From the IMG/VR virus record IMGVR_UViG_3300023175_000022: DNA of 64,000 nucleotides. The stretch is one strand, 5' to 3'. This DNA comes from an uncultured virus (IMG/VR IMGVR_UViG_3300023175_000022). Lineage: Duplodnaviria > Heunggongvirae > Uroviricota > Caudoviricetes. This document shows positions 28,365 to 37,244 of the stretch, one piece after another. The notes under the pieces are model-generated. The model did not search any database. It had not been told where the DNA came from and was given only the letters and a program-made list of their open reading frames with translations. The position numbers and the translations under genes are program-made. The number at the start of each line of letters is the position of its first letter. Within the stretch, counting starts at the first letter, position 1.

Positions 28365-31300
28365 ATGGCATTATTGTCCGGATTTGATCAGCTCGACGTA
28401 TCTAATAATACGTTTGCAGACTGGTTACTTAAAACAAATAACATTATCGATTTAATCCGAGGCGATACGGTTTCTGGTGCTACATCGGTTATGACAGCCA
28501 ATTCGTTACCAGGCGGTTCAATGACATTTGGTAATGCAACTCTCTTTGGCCAATTTACTGCTAACACTATGATGGTCCTCAATCAAGGCGGAAATGATGG
28601 TACCGATGATAGTGTATTTGCGAATGGTGATTTTGGTGGTTTAAGAGGTGGTAATTGGGATCCGTCTACTAATACTTTATCAGCTGACACTCTCTACGTT
28701 GTTTCTAATACTACATTTACAGATGAATCAGTAGAAGTATATGTTGATTCAACATACGGACTGATCGTTGAACGTTTTATTGAAGCACGACATGATGTCC
28801 GATTTGTTGGTTCAGGTTCAAACACTAATCCTAATTTAAATTGGGATGATGCTAATACAGTACTTAGCTTTAATAATGATATTCGTGCAACGTTCGGTGG
28901 TTCCTCTAATGCAGAGCCATGGGGTGGAACTAGTCAAATGGAAATGTTCTACTCAAGTGGTAGAATGTATTCGAACACTGACGTTCAAGACGTTCGTTCA
29001 ACTGCTAATCTAAATCTTATTACAGATCGCTTTGAGCTAAGATCAGAGACTGGCGGCGAGGAAATGATTACCGCCAATCTAAATGGCGAAGTAGTTTTAT
29101 TCTGGAATGATATTGCTAAGATGACCACTAATACCTATGGTATTACTGTACATGGTGATGCTATCCTCGAAGATGATCTCGTAATCTTCGACGGCAATAA
29201 AATCTTGATGGGTGGTAATACTACTTACGATGGTACAGAAGATCTAACCACTTATAAGTTCCAGATGTTTACTGATGGCAGCGATTCATACATCGTTGCA
29301 GATGATCGCGACCTTTATATAGAAGTTAACGAAGGCTTCGAGCTAACCAATATTGGTCGCGGCACTCATTATATGACAGCTAATGCATATGGTCAAGATG
29401 AAGTTATCTTATATGCAAATGGAACTAAGAGACTAGAAGTTGTAGATGGCAGTCAAGGCAATAACTCGGTAGATGGTGTTGAAATCTTCGGTGAAGCGAA
29501 CACCACCACACTACGCGTTCGATCTGATGCTAACTTTGATAATGATACACTTAATTCTAATAGTGTACATTGGGATGCTAGTCTCGAGGTTTGGAATTAT
29601 AGAGATAATGTCAAAGCTACATGGGGTGATAGTGATGACCTTGAGGTCTATTATACTGGAACTCGAGGAAATGTAAACACCGATATTCTCGATGTTCGAG
29701 GTTCGACTAATACAAACATCTTTACAGATGATTTTGAAATGCGGTCAGACACTGGTAATGAATTGTTAATGACAGCAAATGTCAATAATGGTGTCGAGCT
29801 ATATCATAACAATATTAAGAAAGTATCGTCTAACACACACGGTGTTGAAGTATACGGTCAAGTCATTGCTGATAACGGATTTGTCACCTATAATGGCCAA
29901 CCTATCGAAATGGGTGGAGCAAACTATGCAGCAGCCCACAACTTCACCATCGTCACTGATGGTACAGATACAACCATAACAGAAACCTCTAACGATTTGT
30001 CAGTTCGCGTTGAGGATAACTTCCGCGTCACTGACGATAGTGGTACTACTAGCCTTATCGTTGCTAACACAGCTGGTGAAGTTACACTTTACTGGAATAA
30101 TGTCCAAAAACTTCAAACTAATACTGCCGGCATTGAAGTATATGGTGAATCAAATACTGTCACTCTACGTGTTCTGACTGATGCCAACTTCGATGGATCT
30201 ACCGGTCTTGATTCTAATAACATCTCGTGGGATGCATCAGCTAATACATTATACGTCAGAGATGACACACCAGTCGTTTGGGGCGACGATAATGATTTAA
30301 CTATCAAGCATGATGGCACTAATAGTTATATTAGGGAAGCTGGCGTTAGTAGTAACCTCTATATCGAAGCTACTGATTTAATAATACGTGGAACTGCGGG
30401 TTCTCGCTATTTTGAAGGTGACGATGGTGTTGCTACTCGTTTGTATTCTCCTCAATCTGACACATTAGAAGTTACGATTGACAATGTTGGTGTATTAATT
30501 GCTAATGAAGCAAATACTGATACACTCACAGTTCGAAGCACTTCTCGGTTCCAAGACGATATTGGCATTGAAGGTTCAACTAGCGCTAATACTATTACTT
30601 GGGATAAATCAGCAAATACACTGAACTTCGATGATAATAACTATCTCACTATGGGTACTGGTGGTGATTTCATTATGTACCACGAAGGTGCTAACACATA
30701 TATTAAAGAATTAAATGCTAGCGGTGATTTAGTGCTTCAAGCAAATAATATGCAGCTTGAAGATACAAGCGGACAAGCATATTTCTGTGGTACTGCTGGC
30801 CAAGGTGCATCGATGCACTTCAATGGTGACCAAAAATTAATTACTCGTAATGACGGTGTAGAAGCAAACGGATTATTTGATACAGATACCTTGCTTGTTA
30901 CATCATACGCTAACTTCGAAGCTGATGTATATTTCGATGGTACTGCCGCTGATCAACTCCATTGGGATGCATCAGCCGACGTGTTGCAATTCAATGATGG
31001 AGTTCAAGCGACATTTGGTGATGACGATGATTTGCGAATATATCATAATGGTACTAATAGTTTTATCGACGACGCCGGCACCGGTAATCTTCTTATTAGA
31101 TCAAGTCATATAAAACTTCAAAAATATACTGGCGAAAATATGATAACTGGCGTTGCCGATGGTGTTGTCACTCTTTATCATGATAATATTGCCAAGCTCG
31201 CTACAACAGCAACTGGTATCAATGTAATCGGAAATGTTGTAGGTGATGGATTACAGATCGATGGAAATGTTGATCTTGGATCTCTCAGTACACATAGTGT

Positions 31301-31811
31301 CAGTGTAAATGGTAGACTAGATACTAATTTAATTTCTAGTAATCAATCTAATGTTGGTTCAATGGCATTGCCATGGGATTGGGGTTACTTCAACGATATC
31401 AACGTAGCGAATACTGCGACAATTCTTAACCTCGAAGTCACAACGTTGGAAGCAAATGGTGTTGCATTAACAGGCACTGGCGGAGATGTTACTACGACTT
31501 CAGCCACAGAAATTGATAGTATTGATTTGCAATCTTTGAATAAGACACAAGGATTTAAATATTTCGTTCACGGCAAAGATTTGAATGATTCAGATTCAGG
31601 TTATGCAGTCGAGATAAATGTTGTCATAACAGATAATGATGACATTTATTATACACGTTATGGTGAAGTAGAAACAAATATGAGTGATGTATCTCTCATT
31701 CCTGAATTAGCTGCGAATACTACACATGTCGTATTAAAAGCAACATGTGGTTCAGCGTCAGGTACAAATATACATAGATTTAATGTAATGAAGATCGAGA
31801 CGAGAGATTAA
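28365..31811 (+). CDS. Tail fibre protein with ~110-aa repeats
   Basis: N-terminal NTFADWLLKTN attachment motif; repeated WDAS...F.D....TFGD..DL.IYH.GTNSYI and L.T...G.EV.G units. Confidence 0.75.
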   Translation: MALLSGFDQLDVSNNTFADWLLKTNNIIDLIRGDTVSGATSVMTANSLPGGSMTFGNATLFGQFTANTMMVLNQGGNDGTDDSVFANGDFGGLRGGNWDPSTNTLSADTLYVVSNTTFTDESVEVYVDSTYGLIVERFIEARHDVRFVGSGSNTNPNLNWDDANTVLSFNNDIRATFGGSSNAEPWGGTSQMEMFYSSGRMYSNTDVQDVRSTANLNLITDRFELRSETGGEEMITANLNGEVVLFWNDIAKMTTNTYGITVHGDAILEDDLVIFDGNKILMGGNTTYDGTEDLTTYKFQMFTDGSDSYIVADDRDLYIEVNEGFELTNIGRGTHYMTANAYGQDEVILYANGTKRLEVVDGSQGNNSVDGVEIFGEANTTTLRVRSDANFDNDTLNSNSVHWDASLEVWNYRDNVKATWGDSDDLEVYYTGTRGNVNTDILDVRGSTNTNIFTDDFEMRSDTGNELLMTANVNNGVELYHNNIKKVSSNTHGVEVYGQVIADNGFVTYNGQPIEMGGANYAAAHNFTIVTDGTDTTITETSNDLSVRVEDNFRVTDDSGTTSLIVANTAGEVTLYWNNVQKLQTNTAGIEVYGESNTVTLRVLTDANFDGSTGLDSNNISWDASANTLYVRDDTPVVWGDDNDLTIKHDGTNSYIREAGVSSNLYIEATDLIIRGTAGSRYFEGDDGVATRLYSPQSDTLEVTIDNVGVLIANEANTDTLTVRSTSRFQDDIGIEGSTSANTITWDKSANTLNFDDNNYLTMGTGGDFIMYHEGANTYIKELNASGDLVLQANNMQLEDTSGQAYFCGTAGQGASMHFNGDQKLITRNDGVEANGLFDTDTLLVTSYANFEADVYFDGTAADQLHWDASADVLQFNDGVQATFGDDDDLRIYHNGTNSFIDDAGTGNLLIRSSHIKLQKYTGENMITGVADGVVTLYHDNIAKLATTATGINVIGNVVGDGLQIDGNVDLGSLSTHSVSVNGRLDTNLISSNQSNVGSMALPWDWGYFNDINVANTATILNLEVTTLEANGVALTGTGGDVTTTSATEIDSIDLQSLNKTQGFKYFVHGKDLNDSDSGYAVEINVVITDNDDIYYTRYGEVETNMSDVSLIPELAANTTHVVLKATCGSASGTNIHRFNVMKIETRD

Positions 31812-32224
31812 TGGCAAACGCTATATACGATAAATTTAAAGAGGCTATTCTCAGTGGTAGCAGTGATTCTGCTTTAAATAATGGCAATCTGAAGGTTGCG
31901 CTGATCAATACTGACAATGAGAGTTATACTGCGACAGATCAGTTTTATTCTGACGTGAGTGCGCTAGCCAATACTGCAGTAGCTAATGCTACATTGACAA
32001 ATGTCACTCTGACAAACGGTGTATTAGATGCCGACGATGTGAGATTTGTCTCGGTCACAGATACAACAGAATGCGAAGCTTTATTGTTTTATATCGACAC
32101 AGGAAACACAGCAACGAGCAGACTAGTTGCATTTATGGATACAAATATCAACGGACTACCAATTACACCTGATGGCTCGAATGTAGATATTTCATGGAGC
32201 ACATCAGGAATATTCAAATTATAA
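31811..32224 (+). CDS. Small virion structural protein
   Basis: MANAIY..FKE..L...LKVALI...GVLDADD...LVAFMD...LPITPDG..V.ISW...GIF.L, a common phage virion family. Confidence 0.7.
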   Translation: MANAIYDKFKEAILSGSSDSALNNGNLKVALINTDNESYTATDQFYSDVSALANTAVANATLTNVTLTNGVLDADDVRFVSVTDTTECEALLFYIDTGNTATSRLVAFMDTNINGLPITPDGSNVDISWSTSGIFKL

Positions 32225-32236
32225 GAAGAGAAAAAA

Positions 32237-33325
32237 ATGGCATCTACATCACAACAATTTGATACTCTCGATGGATTAGTCGTCACAGGAGACATGTCGG
32301 TTGGAGCCAATTTAAATGTCGATTCGGGTACATTGTTTGTCGATGCTTCTACTAATCGTGTAGGTATCGGCAAGACAAACCCGCAGTATAATTTGGATAT
32401 CCCCGGAAATGCATTTATCGATACGCTGACCGCAAACAACTTTAACTACGTTTCTATTTCTTCTATTAATATTGATAATTTAACTTTTTCAGGCAATACA
32501 GTTGAATCTTCATCTTTGCTAATATTAAAATCTGGATCTACTAATGCTATTGATCTAGATAGCGGCGCGGGTGCTGTTAGATTAGAAAAAGGTTCTACTG
32601 AATATGGTCGTTTGAGTGAAAATGGTGGTAGCTTAGTCATTGCAGCAGGCGCATCAACATCTACTGCATTAACTCTTCAGGCAGATGGCGATGCATTCTT
32701 TGCAGCAAATGTGCATATGGTGAATGGCGACTATTTCCATTTAGGCGCTAATACGTTGAGAGGTACCAATAGCGGAGTACAAATTAGCTCTAACACATAT
32801 CATGCCGGCTATTTAGTACACTCTACAACTGATACTGATACACATATTAAATTTAATAATAATCAAATCGCATTGACTGCTGGTGGTTCAACAGTCTTAT
32901 CTGCCAATTCTACTATCATCAGCACCCCTAAGCTAAAGGTTGATGATTTTTTCCTTGAAAATGTATATGAAGGCACGATAGATACTTCAGCAAATCCCGA
33001 TAGATATATTTTTAATATGCAATTGGGATCGGTTCAAACTATTACTGCGGTCGCTGATTTTCATGTAGATTTTTCAGGTATGTCAGCTCTCCCAGCTAGC
33101 ACTGCAGCTACTTTTACATTGATAGTCACGAATAGTGGCGGAACTCATGAAATTACATGGCCCGGAAGTACCGAAGATGACGCAATGTATTGGGCTGAAG
33201 GTGTAGAGCCTCCTTCTTCTAGCGGTGTAGATATATACACTTTTTATTATGTTAGAAATTCAGCTGGAACAGGCGGTACAATGTATGCTGGATTAGCATT
33301 ACGAAAAGCTGGATGGGCGCAGTAA
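32237..33325 (+). CDS. Short tail fibre/adaptor protein
   Basis: VDSGTLFVDASTNRVGIGKTNP fibre motif and C-terminal FTLIV......ITWP....W..G..P......DIYTF domain. Confidence 0.7.
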   Translation: MASTSQQFDTLDGLVVTGDMSVGANLNVDSGTLFVDASTNRVGIGKTNPQYNLDIPGNAFIDTLTANNFNYVSISSINIDNLTFSGNTVESSSLLILKSGSTNAIDLDSGAGAVRLEKGSTEYGRLSENGGSLVIAAGASTSTALTLQADGDAFFAANVHMVNGDYFHLGANTLRGTNSGVQISSNTYHAGYLVHSTTDTDTHIKFNNNQIALTAGGSTVLSANSTIISTPKLKVDDFFLENVYEGTIDTSANPDRYIFNMQLGSVQTITAVADFHVDFSGMSALPASTAATFTLIVTNSGGTHEITWPGSTEDDAMYWAEGVEPPSSSGVDIYTFYYVRNSAGTGGTMYAGLALRKAGWAQ

Positions 33326-33337
33326 CAGGAGTTAAAT

Positions 33338-35248
33338 ATGCCAGCTGGAGGTAAAGGATTTTTTTCGAGAACATGGGCTGAGACGTTTAACGAATCGCGT
33401 GACGTCGCCACTCGAAATACTCCTATTGATTTACCATACGGAAAACATGTTCTAGAAATTGAAGGGCGTGGCGGACGTGGTCAACCAAATGTAATACAAC
33501 CAGCATATCAAGTACAAACTTTATATCCCGCGCGGGATTATCAACAAGCTGCTTATCAGACTAGTCAACCAGCTTATTATGTGCAAACTAATTATCCTGC
33601 TAGATATACTCTTCAGCCTGCATATACACGTTACGTAGATCATCCTGAAAGATATACAACTCAACCTGCTTATGAAACTTCGGCTGCAAAACCTGCTCGT
33701 TTTACTCTTCAACCAGCATATACTACATATACAAATCATCCTGAAAGATATACATCTCAGCCTGCGTATCTAACCGCGTCTGCTAAACCAGCTAGATATA
33801 CTCTTCAACCAGCATATGAAACATCTCGCTTTTATGAAGGCACATCGTATTTTTCGCCAGGATATGAAACATCTAGCTTTTATGAAGGCGCATCGTATTA
33901 TTCGCCAGCATATTCAACATCTGCTTTTTATGAAGGCACAAACCATTATTATCAAGCTGGTTATCATGAATATACCTATTATCCAGCACGCGGGTATTGG
34001 ACCTCGCATCCGTCGAGAGGCTATTATCAAGCTGGATACGGCCCAGTAGTAGACTATTTTAATTCATTTCCTAGTTTTGATGGATATGTTTATTATCCTG
34101 CAAGATATATTCAACAACCAGCTTATAGTACGTACTTCCTTCATTACGGCCGATGGATATATGATCCAAGTAAAAATTTTCCGGCGCGCTATACTGTACA
34201 ATTTGGTTATCATTCTGGTCCATATTATTATCTCCGCGCGACGCCAGAGGACACAGTACCAGTCACATGGATAGATGGCTACATAGCCGCAAATTATTAC
34301 CCTACTAGATATTCTGTACAACCTAGTTATCCTAGCCCGCAATCATATTATCAAATACATGGATGGTATTATTGGGCTGATAATTATCCAGCGAGATTTA
34401 CAAGACAACCTGGTTATTTAAAATATACAAATTACCCTGCTAGATCCTATTGGCAGGCTGCCTATACACGATTAGATGGCTATCAACCCGCGTATCAAGT
34501 AATACAATATTTCCCGGAGAGGTCATATACTCAACCAGATGTAACTACATACACTAATTATCCTGGTAGAACATATGTTGAACCAGATTTAACTTTATAT
34601 AGTAATCATCCTGGTAGAACATATACTCAACCAGATGTAACTACATATAGTAATTATCCGTTGAGATATTCTGTACAGCCATCATATACACAATACACTA
34701 GTTATCCACAGCGTATTTCATATCATGCTCCTTATGAAACATCTCAAAATCATCCATTGAGATATTCTAAACAACCAGCCTATACTCAATATAGTAATTT
34801 TCCACAACGTATTTCATATCAGGCTGCATATGAAACATCTACGAGTTATCCATTGAGATATAGTGTTAATCCTGCTTATCAAGTACAAACGTTGTATCCG
34901 TCGAGAACGACTTATTACCCATCTCGAACTTATCAACAACCAGCTTATTATGTGCAAACTAATTATCCTGCTAGATATTTTACTGGAACATCTGGAGAAG
35001 ATACGATTGTATATGTACAAGATGCACAAAATACATATTATCAATTTAGAGCTCCTGGCACTGCTTCTCCGGCGGCCGGTTCTTATACCAATCCCGCTTT
35101 GCCCCCTACAGTATATGCGACCGTTTATGCAACTGAAGTTGGTGGTGTTTATCAAACATCTGTACAAGCTTATGTTGGTTCAGGAACAAACAATACAAAT
35201 GCTGCCCAAAAAGGGTTTATAAATATGAAGTACGATGCTGACGTTTAA
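33338..35248 (+). CDS. Tyr/Pro/Gln-rich repeat protein; putative adhesin with a long antiparallel beta-ribbon insert
   Basis: SD AGGAG. About 27 units based on a 16-aa QPAY-x5-YPAR-x3 repeat between short non-repetitive ends. Confidence 0.85.
   Translation: MPAGGKGFFSRTWAETFNESRDVATRNTPIDLPYGKHVLEIEGRGGRGQPNVIQPAYQVQTLYPARDYQQAAYQTSQPAYYVQTNYPARYTLQPAYTRYVDHPERYTTQPAYETSAAKPARFTLQPAYTTYTNHPERYTSQPAYLTASAKPARYTLQPAYETSRFYEGTSYFSPGYETSSFYEGASYYSPAYSTSAFYEGTNHYYQAGYHEYTYYPARGYWTSHPSRGYYQAGYGPVVDYFNSFPSFDGYVYYPARYIQQPAYSTYFLHYGRWIYDPSKNFPARYTVQFGYHSGPYYYLRATPEDTVPVTWIDGYIAANYYPTRYSVQPSYPSPQSYYQIHGWYYWADNYPARFTRQPGYLKYTNYPARSYWQAAYTRLDGYQPAYQVIQYFPERSYTQPDVTTYTNYPGRTYVEPDLTLYSNHPGRTYTQPDVTTYSNYPLRYSVQPSYTQYTSYPQRISYHAPYETSQNHPLRYSKQPAYTQYSNFPQRISYQAAYETSTSYPLRYSVNPAYQVQTLYPSRTTYYPSRTYQQPAYYVQTNYPARYFTGTSGEDTIVYVQDAQNTYYQFRAPGTASPAAGSYTNPALPPTVYATVYATEVGGVYQTSVQAYVGSGTNNTNAAQKGFINMKYDADV
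33566..34978 (+). repeat. Perfect 42-bp direct repeat (33566-33607 and 34937-34978)
   Basis: CAACCAGCTTATTATGTGCAAACTAATTATCCTGCTAGATAT in both copies, 1371 bp (457 codons) apart. Confidence 0.95.
35218..35225 (+). promoter_or_regulatory. T4-type late promoter box
   Basis: TATAAATA 45 nt upstream of the first oxygenase gene. Confidence 0.65.
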
Positions 35249-35269: not shown

Positions 35270-35881
35270 ATGTTTCAAATTCAAGAAAAGCTTGTCCCTC
35301 CTCATTTTCTTTCTCATTTCGGTGTTATGAAATCTGTTTTTGACGATGAAGAAATCGATCGAATCAAATTTTACGAGAAGATTTTAGATTTTACGCCGGC
35401 GGCAACGGTCGGCCAAAAAGTTGATCCAGAAACTCATGACCCGGATGTTCATGATTATCGAAATAATAAAGTCGGTTATATGACTGTTGATCAAAATACC
35501 GAATGGTTATGGAGTAAAATAGCGCATATAACAGGCAAAGCTAATTACGATTTATTCCTATACGATATTGAATTTCTAGAAACAATAAACTATTTGATAT
35601 ATGAAGAAGGCAATGAGTATAAAGAACATCGCGACTGCTCATCTTACGGTTATCGCAAATATGATAGAAAAATATCAGGTATAGTAATGTTATCTGATTC
35701 GGACGAATATGAAGGTGGAGAACTCGAAATAAATATATCAGCAACCTCCTTTGAAAAAACTGAATTACAGAAAGGTGATGTGGCATTTTTTGATAGTTGG
35801 TTTACTCATCGAGTAAATCCAGTTACTAAAGGAACTAGAAGGACATTAGCATTTTGGGCGCATGGATTGAACAAAATATGA
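35270..35881 (+). CDS. 2OG-Fe(II) oxygenase (PKHD/prolyl-hydroxylase-like)
   Basis: HxD (EHRD), RKIS..V.LSD..EYEGGEL, distal His (THRV.PVTKG.R) and 2OG-binding Arg. Confidence 0.92.
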   Translation: MFQIQEKLVPPHFLSHFGVMKSVFDDEEIDRIKFYEKILDFTPAATVGQKVDPETHDPDVHDYRNNKVGYMTVDQNTEWLWSKIAHITGKANYDLFLYDIEFLETINYLIYEEGNEYKEHRDCSSYGYRKYDRKISGIVMLSDSDEYEGGELEINISATSFEKTELQKGDVAFFDSWFTHRVNPVTKGTRRTLAFWAHGLNKI

Positions 35882-36475: not shown

Positions 36476-36868
36476 ATGCCAATATTGATTTTGTTATTTT
36501 TATTAATGTCAATGGGTGGAGGAGCGTGGTATTATTATACTGATACTCAAGAAAGGCTTGCAACTCTCAGAGACAATAACTCAAAGCTAATGTTAGTCGC
36601 GGAAACAAATCAACAAACGATTGACAGCCTGCAAAAAGATTACGCGATCGCTCAAGAAAATCTAGAGAACCTCGCGAAAAGAGCACAAGAGGCAGAAGTA
36701 TATCAAGATGAATTAGCAGCAAAGCTAAGACGACATGATTTGACTGTTCTTACCCTACAAAAACCTGGATTAATTGAAAAGAGAGTAAACAATGCAACAT
36801 CCAAAATTTTTATGCAAATTGAAGCTGACACTGGTAACCAGTCTGCTATTGCTTCTCAGTCTGAATAG
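36476..36868 (+). CDS. Inner-membrane spanin (Rz-like)
   Basis: Single N-terminal TM helix followed by a long coiled coil; KPGLIEKRVN motif. Confidence 0.75.
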   Translation: MPILILLFLLMSMGGGAWYYYTDTQERLATLRDNNSKLMLVAETNQQTIDSLQKDYAIAQENLENLAKRAQEAEVYQDELAAKLRRHDLTVLTLQKPGLIEKRVNNATSKIFMQIEADTGNQSAIASQSE

Positions 36869-37244
36869 CGGCTGTGCGAGTGTAGAACCACAAGTCGTTG
36901 TAAAAACAGATTATATTGTCAAAGACATTCCGATTCAACCTCGACCTAAACCAGTAAATTTACATCGTGTAAAATTTTATGCTGTTACTCCGGAAAATAT
37001 AGACGAATTTTTACAAAAGTTCGAAAAAGAATCAGGTGTTACCGTTTATTTTGCATTGAGTGTACCTGATTATGAAAACATGAGTTTGAATGTTGCAGAA
37101 TTGCGTAGATATATAAACCAGCAGCAAGCTCTTATTATATATTATGAAGAGTCTATCGAGACTATGATAAGAGAAACTCCTGAAGATTCAGAAGTTATAG
37201 TTCAAGAAGGAACCGATTCTTTATTTGATTTATTTAAATGGTAA
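36792..37244 (+). CDS. Outer-membrane spanin lipoprotein (Rz1-like)
   Basis: Overlaps the i-spanin end in another frame. Signal peptide with lipobox-like LNSG-C (Cys at 36873), Pro-rich segment and YENMSLN..EL.RYI.QQ helix. True start may be a downstream TTG. Confidence 0.75.
   Translation: MQHPKFLCKLKLTLVTSLLLLLSLNSGCASVEPQVVVKTDYIVKDIPIQPRPKPVNLHRVKFYAVTPENIDEFLQKFEKESGVTVYFALSVPDYENMSLNVAELRRYINQQQALIIYYEESIETMIRETPEDSEVIVQEGTDSLFDLFKW

Follow-up and report, generated by a model that had tools for sequence, protein, structure and literature searches.

A tyrosine-rich repeat protein of an uncultured T4-like marine myovirus: mirror-complementary box order and a probable fold-back rod

The locus and its repeat protein

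A 64,000-nucleotide (nt) stretch of DNA from an uncultured virus of the Caudoviricetes (IMG/VR record IMGVR_UViG_3300023175_000022), referred to here as the window, encodes a Tyr-rich repeat protein of 636 amino acids (aa). An initial annotation of the window, made by a model from the letters alone, had described the repeats of this protein as a palindrome at the protein level, in which two arms of one chain match each other in mirror order, and had proposed that the arms form a long beta-ribbon adhesin. Here, we focus on the order of the repeats, on its conservation in homologous proteins, and on the kind of structure that it implies. The parts of the gene are as follows.

33338..35248 (stop codon included), + strand: whole gene of the 636-aa Tyr-rich repeat protein, from the list of open reading frames (ORFs)
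33338..33496, + strand: conserved N-terminal segment, residues 1-53, with invariant columns in the family alignment and a predicted strand at 38-44
33497..34225, + strand: outbound arm, residues 54-296, with 29 boxes in the curated reading and 27 by the count of the initial annotation
34226..34297, + strand: apex insert, residues 297-320, which contains TPEDTVPVT and covers the residue midpoint (301.5)
34298..34984, + strand: return arm, residues 321-549, with 29 boxes in the curated reading
34985..35245, + strand: conserved C-terminal segment, residues 550-636, with five predicted strands, family conservation, and weak jelly-roll-like matches
34028..34384, + strand: tip region (residues ~231-349), irregular and fast-evolving, made up of loops and degenerate boxes, delimited by inserts of the box caller and by divergence

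A distinctive feature of the protein is its composition. It contains 108 Tyr in 636 aa, and 98 of these lie among the 494 residues of the core (residues 54-547, 33497-34978), where the content of 19.8% agrees with the figure of about 20% given earlier. The core is also ~11% Pro and is free of Cys and Met. Gly makes up 5.7% of the protein (36 in 636 aa), with three GG pairs and no other Gly runs. There are 12 His and no HxH motifs.

Searches with the repeat protein gave no Pfam family at E up to 0.1 (choline-binding, CROP, and YD-type repeat families included), no match in PHROGs, no match in a PDB sequence profile search at E up to 1, and no usable match in the ESM Atlas. A tblastn search of 50,697 phage records found no relative of either the whole protein or its C-terminal 97 aa, and a full-text literature search on the box motifs found no paper.

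The full-length homologues span 352-782 aa. Across the family the repeat region, which varies between 212 and 638 aa, is inserted between a conserved N-terminal segment (~53 aa) and a conserved C-terminal segment (~87 aa). Identity in the N-terminal domain is 0.91-1.00 in seven of nine pairs of close relatives and 0.74 and 0.60 in the other two. Residues 1-25 are strongly conserved, though modelled with low confidence by AlphaFold; because this combination is typical of docking segments, they are likely to serve for docking.

A sub-lineage of the family (P0015; L030 1501-3054; L035 714-2312) has the same N- and C-terminal domains and a Q-type box, and carries an Asn-rich box of the NPNY or DNF type in place of the YPxR box described below. 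P0015 has, by eye, a long insert near its residue midpoint.

Box order in the window protein

The repeat region is built of two kinds of box in alternation. The Q box is 9 aa long, with Q, P/A, A, and Y at positions 1-4 followed by a tail like S-V-x-T-N (282 Q boxes from 12 family members). The P box is 7 aa long, with Y, P, S/A, and R at positions 1-4 followed by three variable residues (281 P boxes from 12 members). When the box listing of the window protein is read by hand, 54 boxes are found, and folding the string at its centre sets a Q box against a P box in 27 of 27 pairs. The 27 mirror-matched pairs of the initial annotation are thus confirmed, and each irregularity named there faces its partner. 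For example, a QQ at residues 70-85 lies opposite a PP at 520-533, and a PP at 215-230 lies opposite a QQ at 373-391. Each of the three YEG boxes (166, 182, 198) is opposed by one of the three PD[VL] boxes (431, 415, 399), and the HPER boxes (102, 134) face QAAY (495) and HAPY (463). The fold centre falls at about residue 300, and the residue midpoint of the repeat region, 301.5, lies within the apex TPEDTVPVT. Box classes defined by length only were tried and rejected, since a 7-aa Q box at residues 70-76 opposes a 7-aa P box.

Residues ~198-350 are degenerate and box calls there are ambiguous. Each of the stretches 260-280 and 328-349 (21-22 aa) admits a reading as a single box or as three boxes, with a symmetric order in both cases; the homologue L001 has clearer versions of these boxes.

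The same symmetry appears in the DNA repeats detected by Tandem Repeats Finder, a result that is independent of box calling.

33596..33940, + strand: outbound tandem arrays, period 96 x2.3 (33596-33817) and period 48 x2.8 (33809-33940)
34524..34861, + strand: return tandem arrays in reverse order, period 48 x2.8 (34524-34659) and period 96 x2.2 (34652-34861)
33566..33607 (copy 1, boxes 4-5) and 34937-34978 (copy 2, last two boxes), + strand: exact 42-nt direct repeat, 100% identity

All four arrays are symmetric about nt ~34232, which corresponds to residue ~299. Their internal identities, 81 and 88% in the outbound arm and 81 and 81% in the return arm, would fit duplications of similar age in the two arms. 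The copies of the 42-nt repeat encode an identical Q-P box pair, while other box copies are 60-92% identical, which points to gene conversion in the recent past or to strong constraint. The gene contains no DNA palindrome that could have caused the mirror order, since a single 19-nt inverted pair at 84% identity was found; the mirror is therefore a property of the protein alone.

Box order across the family

To call boxes without reference to the mirror idea, a semi-Markov caller was used, with two position matrices derived from strict seeds, uniform transitions, and an insert state. It was run on 19 family members (L004 and P0015 were left out), and each box string was folded at its midpoint. 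Two nulls were applied. The first consisted of 20000 shuffles, and the strict null consisted of 100000 shuffles that keep the numbers of Q and P boxes and the lengths of Q runs and P runs apart. Fold-back complementarity is perfect in 8 of the 19 members, with 13 to 42 boxes per arm. The shuffles that reach the observed score in these members are listed below.

L005: 29/29 pairs; first null 1/20000; strict null 15/100000
L024: 25/25 pairs; first null 0/20000; strict null 22/100000
L007: 42/42 pairs; first null 243/20000; strict null 2489/100000
L021: 28/28 pairs; first null 50/20000; strict null 279/100000
P0003: 18/18 pairs; first null 27/20000; strict null 562/100000
L016: 24/24 pairs; first null 449/20000; strict null 4323/100000
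L022: 24/24 pairs; first null 430/20000
P0006: 13/13 pairs; first null 859/20000; strict null 8225/100000

In the automatic string of the window protein the first 18 pairs inward from both ends are complementary, and the parse drops six degenerate boxes near the tip. It is mainly the homologues, not the window alone, that exclude chance.

Compensating changes, arm lengths, and covariation

Departures from plain alternation vary from lineage to lineage, and each is compensated in the opposite arm. In L005 and L024, a PP at boxes 4 and 5 near the start lies opposite a QQ near the end, and near the tip a PPP lies opposite a QQQ and a PP opposite a QQ. In L007 and L021, the first two boxes are QQ and the last two, opposite, are PP. 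P0005 has 44 boxes and carries two 9-aa proline-rich HPPSP inserts at junctions that mirror each other, one behind box 5 and the other behind box 39.

The arms also change length together. The number of boxes per arm ranges from 13 (P0006) to 42 (L007); the window protein and L011 have four boxes more per arm than L001, L002, L012, and P0001, and L005 has four more per arm than L024. Among 15 proteins with a central insert (L003 included), the N and C arms measure 142-318 aa and their residue lengths correlate with r = 0.94; being related, the proteins do not make 15 independent points. The initial annotation regarded arms that vary independently in length as telling against a fold-back; arms with unequal numbers of boxes are seen in L003 alone.

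The match is one of boxes. In L007 an outbound arm of 20 units of 15 aa faces a return arm of 20 units of 14 aa (318 versus 300 residues), with 20 units on each side of the sole long insert. The different unit lengths indicate that the two arms of L007 were homogenised separately, and since the arms match in units but not in residues, pairing is by box and not by residue. In L021 and in the window lineage the arms differ by 9-14 residues.

The centre of the string is marked by irregular sequence. In L005, L024, L007, L016, L022, P0003, P0004, and the automatic parse of the window protein, the box midpoint is occupied by the longest non-box insert, which in the window protein spans residues 288-320 after box 26 of 52. 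In L021 the longest insert adjoins the central box. The length of the central insert varies between 0 and 38 aa across the family, and P0006 is without an apex insert. In five of nine pairs of close relatives it is the central fifth that diverges most, and the termini are the most conserved. For example, identity by fifths is 0.96, 0.93, 0.74, 0.92, and 0.94 for L001-L012 and 0.86, 0.59, 0.56, 0.61, and 0.90 for P0003-P0004.

Covariation between facing boxes, which the initial annotation had expected to follow the fold-back, is strongest in the fold-back register. A table of R/K at position 4 of the P box against Y/F/W at position 4 of the facing Q box reads [[184,3],[10,27]] in the proposed register (Fisher p = 2e-23); a P box without Arg at position 4 tends to face a Q box without Tyr at position 4. 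When one arm is slid by +2 or -2 boxes the association falls to p = 1e-4 and 2e-3, and after sliding by 6 boxes it is not significant. Box degeneracy grows toward the tip in both arms, and the meaningful part of the test is this sharp fall on sliding. The four proteins with perfect automatic parses give [[93,0],[5,4]] (p = 3e-5, driven by P0003). A clear case near the well-aligned termini is found in P0001, in which box 2 has lost its Arg and the facing box 49 its Tyr; in these columns all other aligned homologues retain the Tyr and most retain the Arg. Compensated irregularities and matched arm lengths across the family thus uphold the fold-back with box-to-box register that had been read from the window protein.

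Predicted structure

AlphaFold was run on the window protein with a 14-row alignment and returned a model with a mean predicted local distance difference test (pLDDT) score of 40.5. The model is confident at residues ~31-100 and ~510-636 only, with pLDDT 62-85 over residues 31-60; of the nine 10-residue blocks of the C-terminal segment, five reach 67-85 and the rest 51-76. The highest confidence thus falls at the conserved N and C ends. In the confident parts, the Q box forms a 7-residue strand that starts at its Tyr and ends at the Tyr of the following P box, the P box forms a 5-residue strand from its Arg to the next Gln, and a 2-residue turn occurs at every Pro-Ala. The host domain is predicted to consist of strand 38-44 together with five C-terminal strands. 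The small host domain of the initial annotation, split by the insertion of the repeats, is supported by the conserved flanks and by the ends modelled most confidently.

Foldseek searches of PDB and BFVD returned no match at E up to 0.001 (best E 0.44). In a wide search, VIA reached Z values of at most 5.6, for unrelated jelly-roll-type domains with matches that span both ends, which is within the tool's stated noise; gp37 and gp12 were absent from the VIA matches. The model of the 352-aa homologue P0006, at a mean pLDDT of 38.6, was too low in confidence for a fold search. A complex prediction with residues 52-140 and 463-549 scored 0.12 against a mark of 0.32, which speaks neither for nor against pairing.

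Proposed organization of the protein

Taken together, we consider it probable (roughly 0.65) that this is a structural protein of fibre or adhesin type from an uncultured T4-like marine myovirus, with a fold-back rod inserted in a small beta domain. The fold-back and the split host domain appear well supported by the comparative evidence. The pairing of the arms within one chain, the geometry of the rungs, the location in the virion, and the binding of a receptor we infer.

The protein would be organized as follows. A conserved N-terminal docking segment would lie at one end. One N-terminal strand and the last ~87 residues would form a small beta domain, into which a rod of ~496 residues would be inserted, made of short beta-strand boxes with Pro-Ala turns between them. 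The chain would run out to an irregular, fast-evolving tip (residues ~290-325) and then fold back, so that outbound box i would lie beside return box N+1-i, always a long box against a short one, with the Arg of the P box level with the Tyr of the facing Q box. Since the arms match box for box, not residue for residue, and each box is followed by a turn, the rod is better pictured as a ladder of rungs than as an axial two-stranded ribbon. Each arm may be a meander sheet that packs face to face against the other, or the arms may be arranged in another way. With rungs spaced 0.48 nm apart, a ladder of 27-29 rungs would be ~13-14 nm long, and about half as long if each arm coils two boxes per turn (overall ~7-14 nm). 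Any lengthening of the rod would have to involve both arms. The middle of the sequence is taken as the distal, host-facing tip because the central fifth diverges most and the termini are most conserved; the tip would be the likely site of host contact. With regard to oligomeric state, the protein may be a monomer or a gp37-like trimer.

We also raise, tentatively and with less than even confidence, the idea that this is a new fibrous fold that acts like an RNA stem. Two kinds of box would pair only with each other across a single-chain hairpin, which would evolve by compensatory double changes and paired duplications and would carry the tip to a reach of 13 to 42 rungs.

Points against the fold-back rod and alternative explanations

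Several observations weigh against the organization proposed above. The automatic parse is imperfect in 11 of the 19 members: P0005 19/22, L011 24/28, L001 20/24, L002 20/24, P0002 13/16, L012 19/24, L003 18/24, P0004 14/19, the window protein 19/26, P0001 16/23, and L030 6/15, for which the caller is ill-fitting since the L030 lineage has a different second box. The automatic score of the window protein is not significant, being reached by 19693/100000 strict shuffles. With four coordinate overrides it becomes 29/29, reached by 269/100000 strict shuffles, and curation likewise gives L001 25/25 (2 edits), L002 25/25 (2), P0001 25/25 (6), and P0002 18/18 (4). The overrides in all five proteins were chosen with knowledge of the hypothesis and are secondary evidence, and most of the covariation cells without Arg and Tyr come from curated parses. 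The family members are related, and as a result the shuffle counts and Fisher tests overstate independence. No structure prediction, each read without coordinates, displays arm-arm contact, either for the window protein or for P0006, at the low mean pLDDT given above. The one line of evidence for presence in the virion is the location in the structural module, and host binding is putative.

Two exceptions to the mirror order belong to the same side. In L003 (3992-5662) the arms are unequal (21 versus 27 boxes, 173 versus 216 aa) owing to an uncompensated tandem duplication of six boxes in the return arm. L003 is the sole homologue with unequal arms, one of ~15 distinct architectures. It has 18 consecutive complementary pairs outward from the insert, a PP against a QQ among them, and equal numbers of boxes (Q = P = 24). 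In a post hoc reading, all 24 may pair as a stem with two small hairpins; the duplication may be tolerated as a branch, may mark a transitional form, or may result from mis-assembly of the repeats. The other exception is a 13-18-aa loop after box 23 in the window lineage, which has no counterpart in the return arm.

The mirror rule can be explained in other ways. The structure could be a trimeric gp37-like needle, in which three chains run out and back and six arms form the rod. This is a variant of the fold-back rod, possible if on the unlikely side. T4 gp37 has this topology, with D11 in collar D10, and is trimeric (PMC6957217). Trimeric jelly rolls and fibre-end domains are found among the weak matches of the host domain, at Z values of 4.2-5.6 that lie within the noise range of the tool. 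No sequence or fold match to gp37 or its collar domains was found, HxH motifs are absent, and monomeric tip adhesins exist too, gp38 being the example (PMC12032242). A rather improbable arrangement is an antiparallel oligomer, a two-ended rod in which the outbound arm of one chain lies on the return arm of another, head to tail. It yields the same mirror rule, so that neither that rule nor the Arg/Tyr covariation separates pairing in cis from pairing in trans, and P0006, with no apex insert at all, suits it. The variable centre, the conserved termini, and the central insert of 0-38 aa would fit a distal loop better, and a fibre on a virion would need a single attachment end.

The fold-back is dispensed with altogether if the protein, like other proteins with aromatic-rich repeats, is a single-pass beta-hairpin or solenoid rod and the mirror is a by-product of terminal capping and an equal need for long and short strands. 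AlphaFold does give strand-turn-strand repeats only, most of the order is plain alternation, which is trivially self-complementary, and L003 retains Q = P despite its unequal arms. We regard this as distinctly improbable, since strict shuffles rarely match the mirror order (15, 22, 279, and 562/100000 for L005, L024, L021, and P0003) and the paired four-box gains, the mirrored HPPSP inserts, and the register-specific covariation would be left unexplained. Lastly, the initial annotation had envisaged a monomeric, continuous two-stranded antiparallel beta-ribbon along the axis, tens of nm in length. Such a ribbon has the same mirror symmetry; as a literal model it is highly improbable and does not hold up against the strand per box, the Pro every 7-9 residues, and the AlphaFold turn at each Pro-Ala. 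The arms of L007, at 20 and 20 units, are 18 residues apart, and the arms of L021 and of the window lineage are likewise unequal in residues.

Comparison with known fibre proteins

The closest known design is the T4 gp37 tip, by analogy and in its topology principle, with no detectable homology. According to the tip description in PMC6957217, a needle, D11 (882-1009), is inserted in a collar, D10 (811-881 and 1010-1026), in a trimer with iron-binding His; the chain goes to the distal tip and returns, and the tip bears the receptor contacts. The initial annotation had set the repeat protein apart from T4-type fibres, a contrast that was overstated in view of this elongated D11 in a small collar. 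As in that description of the gp37 tip, an elongated domain is inserted in a small domain built from both flanks, and in the repeat protein variability is greatest at the centre. The insertion measures ~496 aa in the repeat protein and 128 aa in gp37, the boxes are of Tyr/Pro/Arg type and not iron-binding His pairs, and the strands appear, from the model, to run across the rod, whereas in gp37 they run along it. The fold of the gp37 collar is shared with gp12, gp10, and gp11; the searches with the repeat protein gave no sequence or fold match to it.

PMC12032242 describes gp38 of Straboviridae as a monomeric receptor-binding protein at the distal tail. The repeat protein resembles gp38 of the T2/S16 type in that its gene directly follows a fibre gene and that its modules comprise variable parts and a conserved part for attachment. 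In contrast to gp38, it has no Gly-rich motifs of the kind that separate hypervariable segments and no Pfam match, and its repeat logic is wholly different. By analogy, it would belong to neither the gp37 nor the gp38 family and would represent a fold-back tip of gp37 type made from a new self-complementary repeat.

Aromatic-rich beta-hairpin repeats offer a functional analogy only, and no Pfam family of that kind was matched. Choline-binding, clostridial toxin, and YD/RHS repeats are Tyr-rich tandem units of 16-22 aa with short strands and tight turns. These are single-pass arrays and are not known to have a mirror-complementary order.

If the arms pair box to box, this would be a rare case in which the tertiary topology of a protein can be read from repeat order alone. 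It would also be a case of helix-like compensatory evolution, in which indels come in pairs and facing boxes lose Arg and Tyr together. To the triple helices, the beta-spirals, and the T4 iron needle of phage fibres it would add a new principle of construction. Phages could then tune the reach of a hypervariable receptor-binding tip, and the family would provide a natural length series, from 26 to 84 boxes, for relating fibre reach to host recognition in abundant uncultured marine myoviruses. A rod that is self-complementary and can be tuned in length would also make an attractive scaffold for protein design.

Genomic cassette

PHROG matches to baseplate, sheath, portal, terminase, and neck proteins identify the window as a T4-like myovirus structural module. 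The portal gene has ~67% DNA identity to those of cyanomyoviruses and Pelagibacter myoviruses; as it is no closer than this, the virus is assigned to an uncultured marine lineage. The genes around the repeat gene are as follows.

28365-31811: 1148-aa fibre-like protein with internally repeated modules, matching several tail-fibre and virion-structural PHROGs over 2 to 4 stretches each
31811..32224, + strand: 137-aa conserved protein, PHROG 644, adjacent in 7/7 loci
32237..33325, + strand: 362-aa fibre-like protein, candidate partner, immediately upstream of the repeat gene in 7/7 loci, PHROG 5906 (function unknown)
35270-35881: 203-aa 2-oxoglutarate (2OG)-Fe(II) oxygenase, PF13640, directly downstream of the repeat gene in 7/7 loci

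The cassette of 1148-aa, 137-aa, 362-aa, and repeat proteins is kept in all seven viral loci. The 362-aa protein has a conserved N terminus (0.82 identity in the first 20 residues), a variable middle, and a conserved C-terminal region of ~50 aa; its C end is a candidate docking site for the N segment of the repeat protein, and the 362-aa protein itself would be the distal fibre, we infer. The identities of the 362-aa protein to that of the window are 62, 63, 41, 30, 34, and 35%, and those of the repeat protein, in the same order, are 63, 60, 37, 32, 36, and 31%; in the near-identical L006 they are 100% and 99%. Five of these loci are set beside the 137-aa protein below (identity to the window, %).

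L001: 362-aa 62; repeat 63; 137-aa 96
L003: 362-aa 41; repeat 37; 137-aa 74
L004: 362-aa 30; repeat 32; 137-aa 61
L005: 362-aa 34; repeat 36; 137-aa 65
L007: 362-aa 35; repeat 31; 137-aa 70

The 362-aa and repeat proteins diverge together and faster than their neighbours. The linkage with the upstream fibre-like gene, on whose product the initial annotation had suggested that the repeat protein may be mounted, is thus supported both by gene adjacency and by parallel divergence.

The nearest solved relatives of the oxygenase are PKHD-type hydroxylases (E = 3e-8), within a group that is prolyl/lysyl-hydroxylase-like. With Pro in nearly every box and Pro-Ala turns, the repeat protein is a conceivable substrate for hydroxylation. 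Oxygenases of ~31% identity occur in 292 phage records, and tblastn of that collection gave no repeat protein. Because similar oxygenases are common in phages without the repeat protein, their adjacency is weak evidence.

A tblastn search with the 137-aa protein found relatives in 152 phage records, mostly of Mycobacterium and Pseudomonas phages, some annotated 'minor tail subunit', and the locus around the homologue in Pam2 offered no useful context. This distribution is very wide for a gene of a T4-like cassette.

Several ORFs of 65-119 aa overlap the repeat gene on both strands (window 33521-35222) and look like by-products of repetitive codons. Farther downstream, two ORFs in different frames, 36476-36868 and 36792-37244, overlap by 77 nt, and the pair recurs in L001, L002, L004, and L005.

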